Source: a virus (lineage: Duplodnaviria; Caudoviricetes). Taken from it: a stretch of DNA of 39,988 bases. Below the pieces are notes generated by a model. The model was not told the origin of the DNA and made no database searches. It saw nothing but the letters and a program-made list of their open reading frames with translations. Shown piece after piece: positions 9,564 through 36,060 of this stretch. Each line of letters begins with the position of its first letter. The stretch's first letter is position 1. Both the position numbers and the translations under genes were made by a program. The stretch lies in the IMG/VR virus record IMGVR_UViG_3300017658_000008, positions 1 to 39,988 of that record. One strand, 5' to 3'.

Positions 9564-9760
9564 ACCCCTCCCTCCCAGCCCTCTGCCGCGAGCTTCTTTG
9601 CCAAGGCTGGGACACCATCAGAATAGCTGCGTACCTCGGTAAGCGTGAAAGCACCATCTACAACGCTCTAGCCGAAAGGAACGCCTCCCATGACGCTCGC
9701 CGAGCACTTCCCAAGGCCAAGGATAAAGCGCAAGCCATTCCGCAATCTGCACGGATTTGA
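9560..9760 (+). CDS. Small HTH protein
   Basis: GWDTIRIAAYLGKRESTIYNAL HTH motif. Confidence 0.6.
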   Translation: MNPSLPALCRELLCQGWDTIRIAAYLGKRESTIYNALAERNASHDARRALPKAKDKAQAIPQSARI

Positions 9761-10343
9761 CCGCGCCCGCGTCCTGGCAGCGGCGGAGAAGGGTACCGTC
9801 AACCTCAAGCTCTCCGGCGACACCTTGCGCTGGTACATCCTCCGGGTGGAGCCGCAGAAGGAGTTCGCCGCCGTCGAGATCATCGACAAGCGCGGCGGCA
9901 TGGCGTTCGTGCCGGTGGAGGAAAAGTTTCCCCGTCTCCGGCGCGGCTCCTGGAAGCGCGACAAGCGCGCCGCGCCCAAGCGCTACCCGATCTTCCCCGG
10001 CTACGTGTTCGCCGGCTTCAACGGCGTGGTGCCGCTCTACCAGCTCGCCCGGCTCTATGTCGTCAAGGGCGTCGTCGGCTTCGAGGGCAAGCCGTACGAG
10101 GTGCCGGCCGCGATCATCGAGGGCATGCAGAAGCTTTCCGGCCAGACCTTGCGCCGGCGCTCGACGCCCAACCCGCACAAGAGCTTCGACGTCGGCGAGA
10201 CGGTGGAGATCACCGGCGGCCCGTTCGAAGGCTGGTCGCTACCCATCGTCGGCATCTCGGGAAAGATGGCCGAGTTCATGGTACAGTTCATGGGCAAAGA
10301 GCAGAAGGTGAAGGTGCCGTTGAGCTTTCTGGAGGCCGCGTGA
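9690..10343 (+). CDS. NusG-family transcription antiterminator (late regulator)
   Basis: WYILRVEPQKE, PIFPGYVF and C-terminal KOW (FDVGETVEITGGPFEG); sits in the Q position. Confidence 0.88.
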   Translation: MTLAEHFPRPRIKRKPFRNLHGFDRARVLAAAEKGTVNLKLSGDTLRWYILRVEPQKEFAAVEIIDKRGGMAFVPVEEKFPRLRRGSWKRDKRAAPKRYPIFPGYVFAGFNGVVPLYQLARLYVVKGVVGFEGKPYEVPAAIIEGMQKLSGQTLRRRSTPNPHKSFDVGETVEITGGPFEGWSLPIVGISGKMAEFMVQFMGKEQKVKVPLSFLEAA

Positions 10344-26949: not shown

Positions 26950-27359
26950 CAGCCAGCATCGATGGCATCCATCCAACCGACATCGACCTCTATTGGCCGC
27001 TGGTCGAAGCCTGGGTGGAAGCGGCAGCGTCGGATGTTGCCTCGTGGTCGACGGCCGACTGGCGCCACAAGGTGGAAACCGGCCACGCGCAGTTGTGGCT
27101 CATCCGTCTTCGCTCCGCACTGAGCGGCGTCATCATCACCGAGATCTACGACACGGCGGCGGGGAAGACGTGCGCCCTCCCCATCGTCGGCGGAACGCAC
27201 CTGAAACAATCCCTCCCCGTGCTCGCCGATATCGAAGCCTGGGCCAGGGAGCAGGGCTGCACCCGGTTGCAGGGTGACGGCCGCGAAGGGTGGGTGCGGG
27301 CGTTGCAAAGTCTCGGCTGGCGTCCGGTGAGCGTACAGATCGCAAAGGAACTCATCTGA
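26946..27359 (+). CDS. GNAT-like virion assembly protein
   Basis: AQLW...TEI...GG.....IEAWAREQGC..L...GREGW.R. Confidence 0.7.
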   Translation: MTASIDGIHPTDIDLYWPLVEAWVEAAASDVASWSTADWRHKVETGHAQLWLIRLRSALSGVIITEIYDTAAGKTCALPIVGGTHLKQSLPVLADIEAWAREQGCTRLQGDGREGWVRALQSLGWRPVSVQIAKELI

Positions 27360-28051
27360 TGGGCTCATCGAAGCAAACGCAGACCTCGCAAGCCACGCCC
27401 TATTCAGCAGCCAAGCCGGTCATCAATGCGCAGGGCCAGGCGGCGCAGAACTATCTCTCCGACCCCAACGCCACGGCGGGTGCCAAGTCGGCGGCCGGCT
27501 ACTATCAGAACGTCGTCAACGGCGACTATCTCAACCCGGGCAACCCATATACGGATCAGCTCTCCGATTCGATCTGGTCGGAGGTGGCCCCCAGGGTCAA
27601 CAACAACTACGCGGCGGCCGGGCTTCCGAACTCGACGCTGGCACAGGGCACGATGGCGAAGGAGTACGCCCGCGCCCTCGCCCAGCCGCTGTTCGCCAAC
27701 TACCAGAACGAGCGCGGCATGCAGCAGCAGGCGGCCGCTGCCCTTCCCGGGGCGGAGTTCGCCGCCTCAGACGCCGGCAAGGCGGCGAACACGCTGCCGA
27801 TCTCCTCGTCGATGACGCCCTATGCGAGCCAGACGCAGACTTCGCAGACGCAGCAGCCCTTGTGGCAGCAGGTGGCCGGCGGCGCGCTCGCGGGTGCAGC
27901 GCTGCTCGGCGCGCCTTATACGGGTGGGGCGAGCCTTGGATTGCTCGGCGGTGCAGGCGGCCAGACACTCGGCGGCGCGGCCATGAACACGCTGCAGGGC
28001 AAGCCGGCCGAGTACGGGTATAGCTGGGCTCCCTGGGTTCAGTATTCCTGA
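27359..28051 (+). CDS. DNA ejection/pilot protein (gp7-like)
   Basis: MGSSKQTQTS start; Gln/Ala/Gly-rich; hydrophobic Gly-rich C-terminus. Confidence 0.7.
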   Translation: MGSSKQTQTSQATPYSAAKPVINAQGQAAQNYLSDPNATAGAKSAAGYYQNVVNGDYLNPGNPYTDQLSDSIWSEVAPRVNNNYAAAGLPNSTLAQGTMAKEYARALAQPLFANYQNERGMQQQAAAALPGAEFAASDAGKAANTLPISSSMTPYASQTQTSQTQQPLWQQVAGGALAGAALLGAPYTGGASLGLLGGAGGQTLGGAAMNTLQGKPAEYGYSWAPWVQYS

Positions 28052-30816
28052 TGCCGCCGCTTTTCGTCCGGGACGATCCGGAAGCCCCCGGCCTGATGCG
28101 CAAGCCGCAGGAGAAGCGCGTCGGCTTCCGCGCCTCCATGCTCCCCATCGGCAACTACGAGGATGGATCTGTAGCTTTTCCCGTCTGGCCACAGAGCGCG
28201 GTGGACGCCAAGAACGCGCTGATGCGCTTCGGCAATGCCACGCATGCCGCAACGAGCGGCGAGCCATGGTCACCGGCTGAGACGTTCCCTCGAGACGAGG
28301 ACGCGGTGCTTGCCGGCCTGGCGATGACGGGCGCGGGGTTTGCGCCGTGGGCGTCCCGCGGGGCAGCCGGGAATATCAATCTCGTCGACCCGATACGCGC
28401 ACGCTGGATTAACAGGACAGCGCCGGAAGGACCGGTGGCGGTCCACCGCGCGCCGCCATTTGAGGCAAGAAACCCGCTCAACATCGGGGGGCGGGCCGAT
28501 CTAATCCCAGAAACTGCGGCTAACGATGCGCGCGGCCCGATGTGGCATCGACCATACCCCGACGCACCTTTGACCGATGACGGTGATTTGTACCTAGGCG
28601 CATGGGAGACCCAGACCTATCCGCGCTCATGGCACTCCGACAAGCCCTGGGACAGACTCGCATCAATGGGTTTTCATTTCTCACCAGAGGCAAGACGGGC
28701 CCTGCTGAAGCATCATGCGATGATTAACGAGGAGAACGCGGCAAGAGGGGAGCCATGGCGGTGGGCCGGTGATGGCGAATACGGCGATCCCGTCGCAGGC
28801 TTCCACGGCAACTTCGGCGCCACGCCGTGGAATTTCAATCCGAAAACCGGCGAGCCGGCCGATAAACATTTCTTTGCCGTGGAAGCCTGGAAGGAATATG
28901 AGCGCACACGCCCGCACGGCCCGCCAGGCGTCCCTCTTAACAACTATCCGGATGACTATTTCACAGCCAACGCCCCCGACGCAGCCCCGGCAGGAGCGTT
29001 GGCTATGGCGGCGGCTTCGGAAAGAGGCCTCTTCTCCAACCCCAAGGAAGCAGCCCCTGCAGGAGTATTGGCTTCATCTCTGTCTAACCGCGTGACCTTC
29101 ACGCCAGAGATGAAGGATTTTATCAAGCGCAATTACGCGAGCATGGATGAAGCCTCGCTCGCTGAAGGCCTTGGCATTGATAGGAAGACATTGCGAACAT
29201 TCTTGAATGCATCGCATGACGAGTTACACTTACGTCTGCGAGCACAGGGAAGCAAAATCAACGCCGCTACCAAAATCGGCAACTTAGATATGGATCGCGT
29301 GAAAGCCGCCCTGGACGAAGGCGTGTCAATCCGTGAGATTGCGCAAGCTCATGGGGTCGACCATAGCTATCTTGCAAAAAGGCTCGCGAAAGAAGGCATC
29401 CGCGAACAAACGCCCGTCCCAGACAACACGGCCAGGAACGCGCTCGCTGTCGAGTTGGTGAAGGCGGGAGCCAGCTACGACGAGACCGCCAATAAGCTTG
29501 GCATGACCCGCAATGCTGTGGCAGGAGCCATCAGTAGGGCCAAAGCCAAAGGACTCTACGCCAACCCCAAGGAAGCAGCTCCTGCAGGCCTCCTAGCCAT
29601 GGATGCCGCTTCACGCATGAAGCGGGCAAAGGCCTTAGGGTTCGATACTGACAAAACTTGGTATCACGGGACGAACAAAGCATTCGACACGTTCTCGCCA
29701 GAGAAGCGCGGTAGCAATACCGGCGCTCCGAGCGCGGACGTTGGGTATTTCTTCACCGATAGACCCGCGACCGCTTCGTATTATTCATCAGGGAACAGTG
29801 GTAACATCCCTGCAGCCGCGAAGGAGGCGGCACTTATTCGCGATGGCGCTGAACAGATGGCCAGCCTTTACGAGCAGATGGGCGATGTAGAGCGGGCGAT
29901 GCCTCATCGGCAGAGACAGGCCGAGGCGGGCGGCCCGAGTATTATACCAACCCATCTGCGTATGCAGAACCCTCTAATTCACGATTTCAAGGGTCGCGTA
30001 TTTAGGGACGAATCGTACCGCGATATTATAGACCGAGCGGTCGCTAAGGGGCACGATGGCGTCATTTTCAAAAACACTTACGATGCGGGTGAGTATTCGA
30101 AATTGGATGCCCTGCTTCAGGGACGCCTTCGGCCGGAAAACATTGCGGTAGCATTTGATCCAAAGAACATCCGGTCGAAGTTCGCTGCCTTCGACCCAGC
30201 CAAATCCGACAGCGCCAACCTTCTCGCAGCGAACAACCCCAAAGCCGCACCCGCAGGCATCCTGGCCACCTCAGGCCTCGATCGTCTCAAAGCAGAGGAA
30301 GCCGCCAAGCCGCGCTCCATCCCCGATGCCCCGCAGAGCTTTCCCGAGCTGGAATCCTACGTCGGCAAGAACTTCGAGAACGGCTCCGGCAACAGGGTCA
30401 TCGCTGCACGCGATCAGGACCCGCAGCGCTATTGGGACTATGCCAACGGGTTGCACGACGTGCTGCACCCGGAATCGGAATGGATGATGGGCGCACCGAC
30501 GCTGCATGCAGGTGGATCGTCCGGTGGCCTACTCGGAGCCGTCGGCGGACCCGCACCAGGGCTGATGAGACAGCCGGAAGAGGCACCGGCACCGGGGTTG
30601 ATGCGCATGGCGAAGAGCGACTATCGGTTCGCACCGCCGCAAAGAGGGACAGCAATGCCGCCTCGACTGCCGCTTTATGGCGACGGTTTTACGCAAGACA
30701 TGCTCGTGCCACCCGACTGGCCGTTCGGCGACCCTTACCCGCGTGTCCCGGTGACCGGTCCGAGGCTGAATCCGCCCGTTCGTCCTCTCGGTCCTGGGTT
30801 CCGGCTGGTCGATTAG
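28051..30816 (+). CDS. Modular polyvalent ejection-region protein (unknown module + multi-HTH/GcrA-like + ART-PolyVal-like)
   Basis: 921 aa; four AAPAG linkers; YHGT...GYFFT...DGVI...FDPKNIRSKFAAFDP ART-like motifs. Confidence 0.8.
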   Translation: MPPLFVRDDPEAPGLMRKPQEKRVGFRASMLPIGNYEDGSVAFPVWPQSAVDAKNALMRFGNATHAATSGEPWSPAETFPRDEDAVLAGLAMTGAGFAPWASRGAAGNINLVDPIRARWINRTAPEGPVAVHRAPPFEARNPLNIGGRADLIPETAANDARGPMWHRPYPDAPLTDDGDLYLGAWETQTYPRSWHSDKPWDRLASMGFHFSPEARRALLKHHAMINEENAARGEPWRWAGDGEYGDPVAGFHGNFGATPWNFNPKTGEPADKHFFAVEAWKEYERTRPHGPPGVPLNNYPDDYFTANAPDAAPAGALAMAAASERGLFSNPKEAAPAGVLASSLSNRVTFTPEMKDFIKRNYASMDEASLAEGLGIDRKTLRTFLNASHDELHLRLRAQGSKINAATKIGNLDMDRVKAALDEGVSIREIAQAHGVDHSYLAKRLAKEGIREQTPVPDNTARNALAVELVKAGASYDETANKLGMTRNAVAGAISRAKAKGLYANPKEAAPAGLLAMDAASRMKRAKALGFDTDKTWYHGTNKAFDTFSPEKRGSNTGAPSADVGYFFTDRPATASYYSSGNSGNIPAAAKEAALIRDGAEQMASLYEQMGDVERAMPHRQRQAEAGGPSIIPTHLRMQNPLIHDFKGRVFRDESYRDIIDRAVAKGHDGVIFKNTYDAGEYSKLDALLQGRLRPENIAVAFDPKNIRSKFAAFDPAKSDSANLLAANNPKAAPAGILATSGLDRLKAEEAAKPRSIPDAPQSFPELESYVGKNFENGSGNRVIAARDQDPQRYWDYANGLHDVLHPESEWMMGAPTLHAGGSSGGLLGAVGGPAPGLMRQPEEAPAPGLMRMAKSDYRFAPPQRGTAMPPRLPLYGDGFTQDMLVPPDWPFGDPYPRVPVTGPRLNPPVRPLGPGFRLVD
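28966..30268 (+). repeat. Four dispersed linker repeats (at 28966, 29036, 29561, 30234)
   Basis: CCAACCCCAAGGAAGCAGC[C/T]CCTGCAGG is 27/28 identical at 29036 and 29561; the other two copies are degenerate. Confidence 0.85.
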
Positions 30817-31052: not shown

Positions 31053-31841
31053 ATGATGCCGGCTCTCTTCGATCCCTATGGCCAGCCGATGCCGGACGTG
31101 CCGAGGCGTCTCGTGCCGCCGTGGCAGCAGCAGATCGCGCCCGGGTTCGAGATGCTGCCCATGCCGCCGCCTGTTCAGGCCCGGACCGAACAAATGGCTA
31201 CACCTCCACCGGCGTCGCAACTCTCTCCTCCGTGGAACGCCGCTGAAAGAGCAGCCGATGCGATGATGCCGCAGTCGGCTCCGCTTTATCCGCCGCCGGC
31301 GTCACCCTATCGCTTCCCCTCGCCCGCGAGTGCATCAAACCCGCTCGAGTGGCTTGGCGGTGCGGTGCAGGATGTCGCGGATGATCCGTGGAGGGCTATC
31401 GAAGGAGGTGGCGCGAGCGCTGGTCTAGCTCTCGGCGCCGGCGCTGGTCTATTTGATGCCGCCAGCAACGTGTTCCGAGGCCCACGGCGCGCATTCACGG
31501 AGGCGGAGAGCAACGCTTTCCGTTCAGCCCGTCGCAGAACCGACGTTGAAATCTCCCGCCAGCCGCCGCACGCCGTGCAGGGGCGCAATCCAGACGGCAC
31601 GTTCCGTCCATTCACGGAGGCGCAGCGCGTCGAGCGAGAGCGCGGCATAGGCGCCAGGGCGCAGGACCAGATCAGCCGGGAAGCTGCCGTAAGGCGCGCG
31701 GTCGATGACGCCGAGATTTCTGCCCGACAGAAGAAATACATGCAGGATAATTGGGGCGGGCAGACACTTCCCGAGGAGCCTTCGCGAGAGCTCTTGGATA
31801 TCTGGAAGGGGTCCCCGAAGCCCCCATTCCGGCCTTACTGA
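31053..31841 (+). CDS. Pro-rich putative internal/ejection-region protein
   Basis: GAGG RBS; MMPALF start; Gly-rich hydrophobic middle. Confidence 0.65.
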   Translation: MMPALFDPYGQPMPDVPRRLVPPWQQQIAPGFEMLPMPPPVQARTEQMATPPPASQLSPPWNAAERAADAMMPQSAPLYPPPASPYRFPSPASASNPLEWLGGAVQDVADDPWRAIEGGGASAGLALGAGAGLFDAASNVFRGPRRAFTEAESNAFRSARRRTDVEISRQPPHAVQGRNPDGTFRPFTEAQRVERERGIGARAQDQISREAAVRRAVDDAEISARQKKYMQDNWGGQTLPEEPSRELLDIWKGSPKPPFRPY

Positions 31842-32716: not shown

Positions 32717-32785
32717 CACAACCCCCGAAGTATGCCGACGAGTATAACCAACTCCAGCGCACGCACAACGGGAACAAGCAGAATC

Positions 32786-33847
32786 ATGCCCCCTCTCTTC
32801 TCCCCCTTCGACTTCGGCGGCCCGCAGATGCAGTGGACGCGCGGTACGCAGATGCCGCCCCCCATGCAGGCGCCGCTGCAACAGCCCGAACAGTCGCCGC
32901 CGCCAAACCTCATGCAGCCCATGCCACAGCCATCGCCCCAGCCCCAGCAGGCTCCGCAGGGCGGTTTCCAGGGCCTCCTGGGGGGATTGGAGCAGGGCAT
33001 CTCCTCGCCGCTGTTCCAGGCCGGCATCGGGTTGATGTCGAGCGGCGTCCCAGGGCTGCAGCAGGGTCTGAAGACGGGCGCGGAGCTGCGCACCCTGCCG
33101 CTCGAGCGGCAGCTGAAAGAGGCGCAGATCGACTGGTACAAGGCGCGCGCCGCCGGCAAGGGCGTCGAGGCTCCCTCCAATGTCCGCGAGTGGGAGTACT
33201 TCAACCGGCTCAATCCGGCGCAGCAGCAGCAGTACCTCACCATGAAGCGGGCCGAGAAGTACCTCGACACCGAGACGGGATTTGTACGGCCGAACCCAGT
33301 TACAGGAGAGGTCGCGCCAGTCGTGTCGAAGGATGTCGCCGGCGCCGCCACCGCACGCAAGGCCGGCGAGGCAACGGGCCAAGCCCAGGGGCAACTGCCT
33401 TTGTCGATCGCTGCCGGCGAGAGGATCATCGGCAATATCGACAAGGCGCTCGCCGATCCGGCCCTTGGCAGGGTGACCGGCTCATTCGGCGGCCGTGCGC
33501 CGAATTGGTCCGAAGGCGCTCAACGTGCGCAATCCCGGGTCGACCAGGTGGTCGGTGGCGCCTTCCTGCAGGCCTACAACGACCTGCGCGGCGCCGGCTC
33601 GATTTCCGAGCGTGAGGGTGCGGCAGCCTCAGCCGCCTATACGCGCCTCAAAACGCAGACGATGGGCGATACCGACTATCGTGAGGCTCTGAAGGAGTTC
33701 CGCGAGGAGGTCAGGAAGCTCATGGGTATCGCGCGCGACCGCGCCGCCGGCCGCATCCCGCCGCTCGGCGCGGCGGAGATGGGCGATGGCCCCCAGAGCG
33801 GGGCAGGTGGGGGAGATAGTGGCTGGTCGGCACGGGAGCTTGACTGA
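32786..33847 (+). CDS. DNA ejection protein (gp20-like)
   Basis: MPPLF start; Q/P-rich N-terminus; PSNVREWEY; LRGAGSISEREG. Confidence 0.75.
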   Translation: MPPLFSPFDFGGPQMQWTRGTQMPPPMQAPLQQPEQSPPPNLMQPMPQPSPQPQQAPQGGFQGLLGGLEQGISSPLFQAGIGLMSSGVPGLQQGLKTGAELRTLPLERQLKEAQIDWYKARAAGKGVEAPSNVREWEYFNRLNPAQQQQYLTMKRAEKYLDTETGFVRPNPVTGEVAPVVSKDVAGAATARKAGEATGQAQGQLPLSIAAGERIIGNIDKALADPALGRVTGSFGGRAPNWSEGAQRAQSRVDQVVGGAFLQAYNDLRGAGSISEREGAAASAAYTRLKTQTMGDTDYREALKEFREEVRKLMGIARDRAAGRIPPLGAAEMGDGPQSGAGGGDSGWSARELD

Positions 33848-36060
33848 TGCCGCGCTTTGAGATCACCAGCCCCGACGGGCGCCGCTTCGAGGTCAACGGA
33901 CCCGAAGGCTCGACCCAGAACGACGCCATTCGCTTTATCCAGGGGCAGTTGAGCGCCAAGCACCCCGACGAGCCCGAGCGGGACATTGATTACGATACCC
34001 CGGTTCCCGACGTCCGCGCCGCCATCGACAAGCTACCCGAGACGCGCAAGGACCGGGCGCTCAACATCTGGGCCGACAAGCGCATCGCCAAGGAGCGGCA
34101 GCAGCAGGGGGCGTTGGCGCCCCTTCCGAATACCGCCGAGGGCATACCGTTCATCGGCAACCTGCTGGATGAGGGCACGGCGCTGGTCAAAAGCGGCCTG
34201 CACACGGTCATTCCCCAGATCGGCGCGCCCTACTCCGAAGAACTGGCGTTGCAGCGCGCGCGCTCGCGCCAGGCAGACGCGGCCAGCCCTGCACTTGCGG
34301 CCGGTTCGAAGCTTGCTGCCGGTATTGCGACAGGTGGTCCCCTGTTCGGCCGTATCGCCCCGGCGGCAACGTTGGCAGGGCGCGTCGGTCAGGGTGTGGG
34401 CATCGGCGCCGGCGTCGGCGCCGTGGAAGGCTTTACCGGCGGTGAAGGCGGCTTGGGAGAGCGCGCCGACAATGCGACGCTGGGTGCTCTGTGGGGAGCT
34501 GGCACGGGCGGCGCCATCCCGATCGCCGGCTCTGCGGTGACGCGCGGGTACGGGATGGCGCGGGACGCCATTGGCCCGACGTTCACGCGCCTTCGCTATG
34601 GTCCCGAGGAAGCCGCCGACCAGATCCTCGCCCAGCGGATCGCTCGCGAAGGCTCCTCGCCGGCGCTGAAGCGCCTCGACCTGCAGCGCGGGCAAGCGGT
34701 GGCGGCGCGCATGGACAGCAATTCCCGCGCAACGCTGCCGGAGACCATCGCCGACACGTCCGACGACATGCGCCGGCTGACGGGCAGCCTCTATCGCCAG
34801 GGCGGGGAGGCGGGCAATGTCATCGAGGACGAGCTGACGCGCCGGCAGCGGGGGCCGGCCAACATGTTCGCCAATGCTGATCCGGATGGGCCACCGCAGG
34901 GTCAGATGGCGCGCGTCATGGATTCGACCGAGCGCGCGCTGCAGATCCGGTCGGCGGACAGCGCCAGGCGCACCGAGCAGCAGATCATGGCCGAGCAGGC
35001 CGCCGAAGGGCGCCATCTTTATCAGCAGGCGTACGAAGGCTCGGAAGCTTTCGACCTGCAGCCCGCCCTCGATGCCATGGGGCTGACGATCCAGCAGTAT
35101 CCGGCGCCATTCGCTGCCCGCCTCAACCGCGCGCGCAACCTCTTTCTGCGCTCCGGATCGAGCCCCAACAACCCCATGTGGGTCGACAACGTCCGCCGCT
35201 TCGATGCGGCCAAGAAATCCCTCGACGACATGATCGAGACGGCGCAGCGGCAGGGGCAGAACAATCTCGCTCGCGAATTGACCGGTTTCAAGGATGCGCT
35301 GTTGCGCCAGGTGCACGGCATCGACGAGGCCGGCAATCCGACCCGCAACCTCGCCTATCAGGAGGCCCGGCAAACGTGGGGCTCGGCGGCGGAAAACCGC
35401 GAGGCGATCGAGATGGGCCGATCCGCGCTGCGGGAGGGATCGGAGGTGTCGGTCGAGCACTTCCGCGATCTGTCGCGTGGCCAGCAGCGCCTTTTCCGGC
35501 TAGGATTCCTCGAAAGTCTCCGCAATGCCTTGGGCACCAAGCGTCCGGGCAACGACGTGACGCAGCTTTTCCAGCAGCAGAGGGTTCGCGACCTGATGGG
35601 GGAGATCGTTCCGCGACCGGCAGGACGGAACGCGGTGTTCCGCAATCGCCCCGAGCGCTATGGCGACCTCATGCGCCGCGAAGGGCGCATGGTGCAGACA
35701 AATGCCGAGGTGCTCGGCAACTCCAAGACGGCCCAGCGGGGCCAGGACGACCTCAACTACACCGGCAACGCGCTGTCGACGATGTGGAACCGCTTCCGTT
35801 CCAGCCCCAGCCTGTTCAACGTCGGTGTCGAAGCCATCGGCGCCGGCATCCAGCGTATATTTGCCTATAAGCAGGACGTGGCGCTGGCCCTGGCACGGCG
35901 GCTGCTCGAGGCAAATCCGGAAGCGCGCAATCAGATCCTACGCCGCCTGTCGCGGCGCGGCGGGCCGGACAGGTTTTCGCGCTTCGCCGATGAAGTGGAC
36001 AGGGCCGGCAATGCTCTTATCGGCGCCACGCCGGGACTGCTGACCGATCAGCGAGAGTAG
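33847..36060 (+). CDS. Large DNA ejection protein (gp16-like)
   Basis: MPRFEITSPDGRRFEVNGPEG start; Gly-rich hydrophobic segment; GNSKTA.R near the C-terminus. Confidence 0.8.
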   Translation: MPRFEITSPDGRRFEVNGPEGSTQNDAIRFIQGQLSAKHPDEPERDIDYDTPVPDVRAAIDKLPETRKDRALNIWADKRIAKERQQQGALAPLPNTAEGIPFIGNLLDEGTALVKSGLHTVIPQIGAPYSEELALQRARSRQADAASPALAAGSKLAAGIATGGPLFGRIAPAATLAGRVGQGVGIGAGVGAVEGFTGGEGGLGERADNATLGALWGAGTGGAIPIAGSAVTRGYGMARDAIGPTFTRLRYGPEEAADQILAQRIAREGSSPALKRLDLQRGQAVAARMDSNSRATLPETIADTSDDMRRLTGSLYRQGGEAGNVIEDELTRRQRGPANMFANADPDGPPQGQMARVMDSTERALQIRSADSARRTEQQIMAEQAAEGRHLYQQAYEGSEAFDLQPALDAMGLTIQQYPAPFAARLNRARNLFLRSGSSPNNPMWVDNVRRFDAAKKSLDDMIETAQRQGQNNLARELTGFKDALLRQVHGIDEAGNPTRNLAYQEARQTWGSAAENREAIEMGRSALREGSEVSVEHFRDLSRGQQRLFRLGFLESLRNALGTKRPGNDVTQLFQQQRVRDLMGEIVPRPAGRNAVFRNRPERYGDLMRREGRMVQTNAEVLGNSKTAQRGQDDLNYTGNALSTMWNRFRSSPSLFNVGVEAIGAGIQRIFAYKQDVALALARRLLEANPEARNQILRRLSRRGGPDRFSRFADEVDRAGNALIGATPGLLTDQRE

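Follow-up and report, generated by a model that had tools for sequence, protein, structure and literature searches.

The Cargo Gene and Its Linkers

The DNA analysed here (the window) is a whole virus record, IMGVR_UViG_3300017658_000008, of 39,988 bases, from a phage recovered from soil metagenome runs. It encodes a podophage gene set consisting of terminase, SU10-type portal, scaffold, capsid, adaptor, ejection gene, and lysozyme. Among these virion genes lies an open reading frame (ORF), P0001, referred to here as the cargo gene, in which distinct protein modules are strung between a conserved N-terminal anchor and a C-terminal tail and are separated by copies of a short linker. The features of the gene and its neighbours are listed in Table 1. 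The closest cultured carrier of this gene family is a prophage (L010) in Hyphomicrobium sp. 1Nfss2.1, and the host of the window phage is therefore inferred to be alphaproteobacterial.

Table 1. Features of the cargo gene and of its neighbours in the window
Feature	Position	Strand	Remarks
Cargo ORF P0001	28051..30816	+	921 amino acids
N-terminal anchor	28120..28353	+	Residues 24-101; conserved, common to whole family; predicted hairpin and two helices
Module 1	28354..28956	+	Unknown domain; elsewhere only in P0002 and P0003, there with other parts after it
Linker 1	28957..29007	+	Degenerate
Near-empty slot	29008..29025	+	Opening resembles leader of ART module behind linker 3
Linker 2	29026..29076	+	Canonical NPKEAAPAG
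Helix-turn-helix (HTH) module	29077..29550	+	Two Pfam-supported HTHs (the last weakly GcrA/sigma-4-like) and a possible third
Linker 3	29551..29601	+	Canonical; 23 nucleotides identical to sole linker of Hyphomicrobium empty allele
ADP-ribosyltransferase (ART) module, ART-PolyVal	29602..30219	+	Predicted PARP/diphtheria-type ADP-ribosyltransferase fold
Linker 4	30220..30270	+	Degenerate, terminal
C-terminal tail	30271..30813	+	First ~90 residues common to 14 relatives
Upstream ejection-type (gp7-like) gene	27359..28051	+	Named from position alone
Free-standing ORF	31053..31841	+	Homologue of fused C-terminal tail of P0006
Downstream ejection genes	32732..36060	+	gp20-like (phrog_2534); gp16-like by position (phrog_5880)

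The original prediction, made from the letters of this DNA, held that four linkers separate distinct modules in the gene. All four are present, with their central asparagine at residues 307, 330, 505, and 728. A linker profile found no site in shuffled copies of 68 family proteins, the same set on which it had been trained. The two linkers noticed as 27/28 identical in DNA are linkers 2 and 3 (29036-29063 versus 29561-29588), and the longer repeat that flanks the HTH module is identical at 34/39 positions. Allowing up to three mismatches, a 19-nucleotide core occurs in the window only at these two linkers, with 0.01 occurrences expected. The degenerate linkers retain 62% identity to the reference over 39 nucleotides (linker 1) and 79% over 19 nucleotides (linker 4). 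The inner modules are indeed richer in AT than the core genes, as had been proposed: the GC content overall and at third codon positions (GC/GC3) is 0.54/0.61 for the HTH module, 0.55/0.60 for the ART module, and 0.61/0.66 for module 1, giving a GC3 of 0.60-0.66 versus 0.81-0.90 in nine core structural genes, and the N-terminal anchor stands at 0.68/0.80.

The near-empty slot between linkers 1 and 2 is likely a deletion scar. An imperfect 20-nucleotide inverted repeat lies across linker 1 (28962-29007), where one contig of run X1 ends; it was rejected as an attC-like hairpin, as the other linkers do not share it. A Shine-Dalgarno-like run at 28992-29007 is located 8 nucleotides ahead of Met319, where the database protein P0021 begins, and Met319 could be an internal start.

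Family and Architecture

The N-terminal query returned 20 proteins, which a 63-column anchor profile extended to 56 and then to 103, a set that includes a few repeat-rich false matches such as P0065 and P0080. Sixty-eight proteins are treated as close members: P0001-P0059, leaving out P0021 (a fragment of the cargo gene itself), and ten more picked by eye from the set of 103. The linker is present in 62 of these 68, with one copy in 34, two in 23, three in 4, and four in 1. It stands directly before the tail in nearly every member, empty and minimal forms included, which suggests that it originated as part of the carrier tail. A Pfam scan of 90 members identified ART-PolyVal, LPD23, GNAT, HTH, and weak peptidase matches in varying combinations, and about a dozen module classes, module 1 among them, have no Pfam match. 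Altogether, 61 members display 40 module strings.

With a pattern composed after the sequences had been inspected, an equivalent, lineage-specific linker was found in 33/39 distant members (0.9 sites in shuffles) and is internally repeated in 8 of them. It takes the form of a hydrophobic-x-small-Asn end with a small-hydrophobic stretch behind it. In L024, L033, and L039 the two linker copies within each gene resemble one another and not the canonical linker. Judging from these sequences, protein-level selection on the linker also appears evident, since an equivalent junction persists in the distant members. Genome searches gave matches in 6/401 genomes of the family and 2/401 of the order, G001 included. 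Twenty further genome stretches comprised 3 previously found loci, 2 new cassette genes (L033 and L039), and 15 chance matches that were discarded. P0024 and P0088 had no match when queried against cultured phages and plasmids.

Module Exchange at the Linker

The homologues bear out the proposal that module content varies with breakpoints at the linker, as relatives gain, lose, and swap modules there. Internal BLAST alignment ends fall in the interval -12 to +20 of the linker Asn in 54% of 1290 cases versus 21% for random positions, with alignment starts clustered at -8 to -1 of the linker and alignment ends at +8 to +23. Excess mutual information, computed for 69 and 84 linkers with classes of three or more, links the upstream module to offsets -9 to -1 (z 3-19) and the downstream part to +9 to +17 (z 6-13), and the core tracks neither strongly. 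Ninety-six linkers connect 30 upstream classes and empty slots with 22 downstream classes in 71 combinations, all of these class figures being upper bounds because the clustering over-splits the ART types.

Comparison of individual genes is consistent with this picture. For the 61 members with usable anchors, the module string differs in 43/48 pairs whose anchors are at least 85% identical, and near-identical tails are preceded by different modules in 8/9 pairs, although such pair counts lack independence. Anchors that are 100% identical carry different strings in P0034 (empty) versus P0036 (ART) and in P0025 versus P0026, and one ART module is 87-90% identical across genes with anchors only ~50% alike. 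The empty P0024 of the Hyphomicrobium prophage and the filled P0019 have 81% identity up to and through the linker and 92% from the linker onward, with a 212-residue ART insert between two linkers. P0003 matches residues 1-320 and 723-863 of P0001 via a single linker, the stretch between linkers 1 and 4 being missing, and minimal or deleted forms are represented by P0056, P0066, and P0127. As module strings vary between relatives, a fixed domain order is excluded. The linker is also predicted to be unstructured coil and not part of a structural repeat; the latter reading was rejected on a model of the empty allele (pTM 0.24), in which low confidence attaches to the linker coil and which matches no viral fold at E ≤0.001. 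These sequence comparisons support modules that are swappable, with breakpoints at the linker and a variable domain order. The cargo gene is likely a fast-changing toolkit, because its relatives gain, lose, and swap modules at the linker.

The free-standing ORF at 31053-31841 of the window has 36% identity over 252 residues to the C-terminal tail of P0006, and tails, too, appear to be exchanged and fused.

DNA-Level Signal in the Linker

Silent-site identity between genes is 276/425 in the linker core versus 169 expected from codon usage, 97/390 versus 103 expected in the linker 3' half (saturated), and 235/560 versus 180 expected in the anchor control (intermediate), the linker pairs being drawn from 8 genes with a parsed anchor and not independent. 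When one linker per gene is taken from 10 genes, the core has a silent-site identity of 0.67 versus 0.41. Conservation of the 5' core at silent sites is shown for the genes compared, and it fits homogenisation through repeated crossover. Eighteen linkers showed no stronger folding than their synonymous controls did (mean z +0.7), so that no attC-like hairpin was found among them, and there are no orphan cassettes or extra core copies outside the ORF in the window and none in the G001 genome. To call the gene a "programmable" effector-delivery cassette, as the original prediction did, is therefore an overstatement, since the analysis found no recombinase among the scanned ORFs, no conserved hairpin, no orphan cassette, and no excision joint in the contigs of the sample. 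A scan for promoters and terminators performed no better than chance.

Modules of P0001

The ART-like domain is confirmed by a Pfam match to ART-PolyVal at residues 536-709 (E 7.8e-10, above cut-off). The model of this module has a pTM of 0.67, with low-confidence coil for the linkers on either side. Structurally, it comes closest to ART folds of the PARP, RES, and exotoxin types; the top match (Z 6.9, rmsd 4.8, 125 aligned residues) is middling in Z by itself, and the top of the match list is all one fold class. By eye, His539 is present, Phe stands where Tyr is usual, and Glu696 is a candidate. The module is thus predicted to adopt an ADP-ribosyltransferase fold. A pre-ejectosome chain of cyanophage A4 (PDB 9k3a_B) matches the model as well (Z 5.9); the available text of PMC12002296 contains no "ribosyl" and no mention of an ART fold for this chain. 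The ART module of the window had one weak match among cultured phages and plasmids.

The triple HTH described earlier holds in part: HTH 2 and HTH 3 match Pfam, weakly if scanned alone, but HTH 1 is unmatched. The HTH module has no shorter relatives and no PDB sequence match, and module 1 has no usable Atlas match. The Pfam scan of P0001 found no peptidase match, zincin metallopeptidase included. Elsewhere in the family, one module type is what we take to be "ParB-like", a label that comes from a motif and not from a search match. Atlas feature matches of the anchor and tail (PT-TG 0.83, P22 gp16 0.82, MafB 0.80) lie under the bar and are leads only.

Genomic Context and Probable Packaging

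The start of the cargo ORF coincides with the stop of the upstream gp7-like gene, for which there are zero family matches. The gene at 32732 matches a PHROG annotated "released from the phage upon host infection". Of the ejection-protein genes on either side of the cargo gene, the upstream neighbour is named by position only. In every locus seen, the gene shares the strand of the structural genes and lies among those for head, tail, or ejection proteins. It occupies the interval between gp7-like and gp20-like genes (window, L004), the position behind the last ejection gene (L002, L007, L010, L011), the interval between adaptor and tail genes (L013), or the position behind the portal (L008, L020). 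A 1536-residue amidase-bearing protein carries the cassette as a fusion at its C-terminus (L003, 5256-9866, -; P0059), and in P0083 the anchor is embedded inside a gp16-like protein. Fusions of anchor and cassette were observed in large ejection-type proteins of other podophage lineages (L003, P0005, P0046, P0059, P0072, P0083).

In Sulfitobacter phage phiGT1, gp5 was recorded with 12 spectral counts in virions in the data of PMC10386132, and its ART module is related to P0094 (41%, E 7e-40). On the indirect evidence of gene position, of fusion to proteins of the ejection type, and of the mass-spectrometric detection of this distant protein in phiGT1 virions, the cargo protein is probably packaged and injected. 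A short repeat of the Pro-Gly-Leu-Met type is located near both protein ends (28084-28110 and 30553-30615) and also occurs in neighbouring ejection-type proteins; it is a candidate packaging motif.

Elsewhere in the window, a queuine tRNA-ribosyltransferase-like gene (phrog_887; 433-1550, -) adjoins a PTPS/QueD gene, and the two likely form a 7-deazaguanine DNA-modification module. A NusG-like antiterminator gene (9690-10343) lies upstream of the late operon.

Proposed Explanation and Alternatives

We consider it likely that the cargo gene is a podophage late-region gene of the form anchor-[module-linker]n-tail, whose modules are exchanged at the linker and whose product is probably a packaged and injected multi-effector (polyvalent) protein. 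Modules would likely be gained, lost, and exchanged by ordinary short-homology recombination between linker copies. The terminal linker may be the start of the carrier tail, kept by protein-level selection, possibly as a flexible small-hydrophobic tag that serves packaging or threading. Insertion of a module at the terminal linker would duplicate the linker, and the internal copies could then let co-infecting phages and prophages cross over in frame, which would also homogenise the linker DNA. In the first minutes of an infection, the modules (ART, GNAT, LPD23, HTH, and, by motif, "ParB-like") may target host proteins, nucleotides, or DNA. Protein cleavage at the linkers would not be needed. 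That the linker is a dual-code element, at once a DNA crossover site conserved across unrelated alphaproteobacterial podophages and a peptide packaging and release signal by which any domain ending in the linker becomes injectable, we regard as unlikely; if it were true, these phages would draw their anti-host modules from a common plug-in pool, the in-frame equivalent of an integron.

Several observations weigh against the proposed explanation. Six of the 68 close members lack a linker, most family members are metagenomic gene calls, and the DNA comparisons cover only about a dozen genes. Besides the over-split ART types and the non-independent pairs noted above, the first block of the anchor likewise has a silent-site excess (136/285 versus 94). 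Some deletions, that of the slot between linkers 1 and 2 included, end away from linkers. A second short junction sequence, recognised by eye, lies behind the anchor in many members (P0028, P0035, P0045, P0050, P0055, P0091) and is met again between first-slot modules; the window's gene lacks it. Since this second junction type bounds some first-slot modules, the linker is not the sole exchange point. No rearrangement or excision joint and no difference was found in the contigs of three runs, which drop rare variants; contigs of run X3 are limited to two short stretches within the ART module. Among the scanned ORFs of at least 80 residues, neither an annealase nor any other recombinase or integrase was recognised, the contig being possibly incomplete. 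The virion detection concerns phiGT1 gp5 and no family member itself, and gp5 has no significant anchor match (E 0.15).

The linker might in addition be a processing site at which the polyprotein is cut, in the capsid or after injection, to free the effectors. Processing of polyvalent proteins is discussed in the text of Iyer et al. (PMC5512222); in the family, an L-x-[S/A]-N-type end is retained after unrelated folds, across lineages with differing downstream residues, and the linker is predicted to be disordered and therefore accessible. Empty alleles, however, retain the linker though they have nothing to release, and neither P0001 nor the scanned phage ORFs have a peptidase match. The residue behind the linker Asn varies, Ser replaces Asn at 3/41 distant sites, and the acidic residue is not conserved. 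A cut of the T4/phiKZ type falls after Glu, so the lack of a conserved acidic residue leaves no such cut. The suggestion that the linker is a proteolytic release site is unsupported on these grounds, and processing at every linker is doubtful. A dedicated site for site-specific recombination in the linker DNA, of the integron or attachment-site kind and served by a recombinase of its own, is highly unlikely. The conservation of ~20 nucleotides of core at silent sites next to a saturated 3' half, the 23 nucleotides identical between the window phage and the Hyphomicrobium prophage, and the duplicated site brought by insertions would agree with such a site, but there is no conserved hairpin, no recombinase among the scanned ORFs, and no additional copy in the window or the G001 host genome, and distant lineages have other core sequences with the peptide character kept.

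Alternatively, the gene could be a non-packaged late moron, active for example in the lysogen or in late infection, with the linker as a spacer spread by duplication. The several positions that the gene occupies in the late operon, the minimal or deleted forms, and the absence so far of virion detection for family members are in keeping with this. Its constant placement on the structural strand among virion genes, the fusions to ejection-type proteins, and the protein with a related module in phiGT1 virions argue against it, and we judge it decidedly unlikely. That short repeats misled the metagenome assembly and so produced the mosaic would be suspected from the metagenomic origin of most members and from the run X1 contig that ends at linker 1. 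Such an artefact is extremely unlikely, as the exact repeats in the window gene are ≤19 nucleotides, all four linkers are bridged by contigs without differences (in one sample), the empty allele sits in an isolate chromosome, and several filled forms are each present on 10-29 contigs. Exchange of modules at the linker of a probably injected protein thus remains the explanation that we prefer.

Comparison with Known Systems

Several known systems resemble the cargo gene in part. In CDI (contact-dependent inhibition) and Rhs systems, as described in the text of PMC3150448, VENN-delimited modules likewise have a short conserved peptide-coding junction, and module homology runs from motif to motif. 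Those bacterial systems pair a single C-terminal toxin with an immunity gene and also have orphan cassettes that are silent (PMC3150448), whereas the phage modules lie inside the protein, follow one another in frame, and are all translated ahead of a conserved tail, with no orphan linker copies. Of the small reverse-strand ORFs near the cargo gene, which might include a cognate immunity gene, none has an informative match. The N-terminal tag of T4 internal proteins is cleaved off. T4 IPI/IPIII and T4 microhomology recombination, according to the text of PMC9391042, are alike in their variable packaged and injected anti-defence cargo and in gain and loss at short homologies, but the T4 proteins are encoded by separate small genes with an N-terminal capsid-targeting tag in a myovirus and not by one cassette ORF. 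The phiGT1 gp5 protein, in the account given in PMC10386132, is likewise encoded in the head module of a podophage and is found in virions. It ends in a related ART module; it differs in having one module and no repeated linker, besides its non-significant anchor match.

Polyvalent proteins are a further such system. Encoded by phages, prophages, or conjugative elements close to virion or transfer genes, they unite 2-15 domains with disparate activities in a single chain, and a zincin metallopeptidase, present in about 36% of them, is common and not required (main text of PMC5512222). P0001 likewise unites HTH, ART-PolyVal, and unknown domains, and is phage-encoded near virion genes; its family holds ART-PolyVal, LPD23, and GNAT in variable combinations. 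The family and the polyvalent proteins of PMC5512222 have in common unrelated domains within each protein, a late-region context, and predicted injection, as well as a repertoire of ART-PolyVal, LPD23, GNAT, metallopeptidase-like, and ParB-like domains (the last by motif here). Unlike polyvalent proteins as described, each domain here is bounded by a repeated linker marking exchange points, the anchor and tail are constant, and there are empty alleles. The main text of PMC5512222 is without the word "linker", although its supplements may show such proteins, and it raises cassette recombination only for separate small ORFs in Verrucomicrobium. In a literature search that covered few subscription papers, no account of a cassette cargo gene delimited by linkers came up.

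The family makes it testable how phages reshuffle injected anti-defence cargo and, for podophage heads with no known targeting tag, by which signal accessory cargo is loaded; the cultured Hyphomicrobium prophage with the empty form provides a natural test system. The linker is also a mining handle, any domain ending in it being a candidate injected effector. On its testable features, P0001 is a polyvalent protein and not a polymorphic toxin or an integron. Polyvalent proteins were described earlier as domain grab-bags without a stated assembly rule, and the family described here displays such a rule: modules are joined through a short in-frame junction that repeats, and alleles occur both empty and filled.

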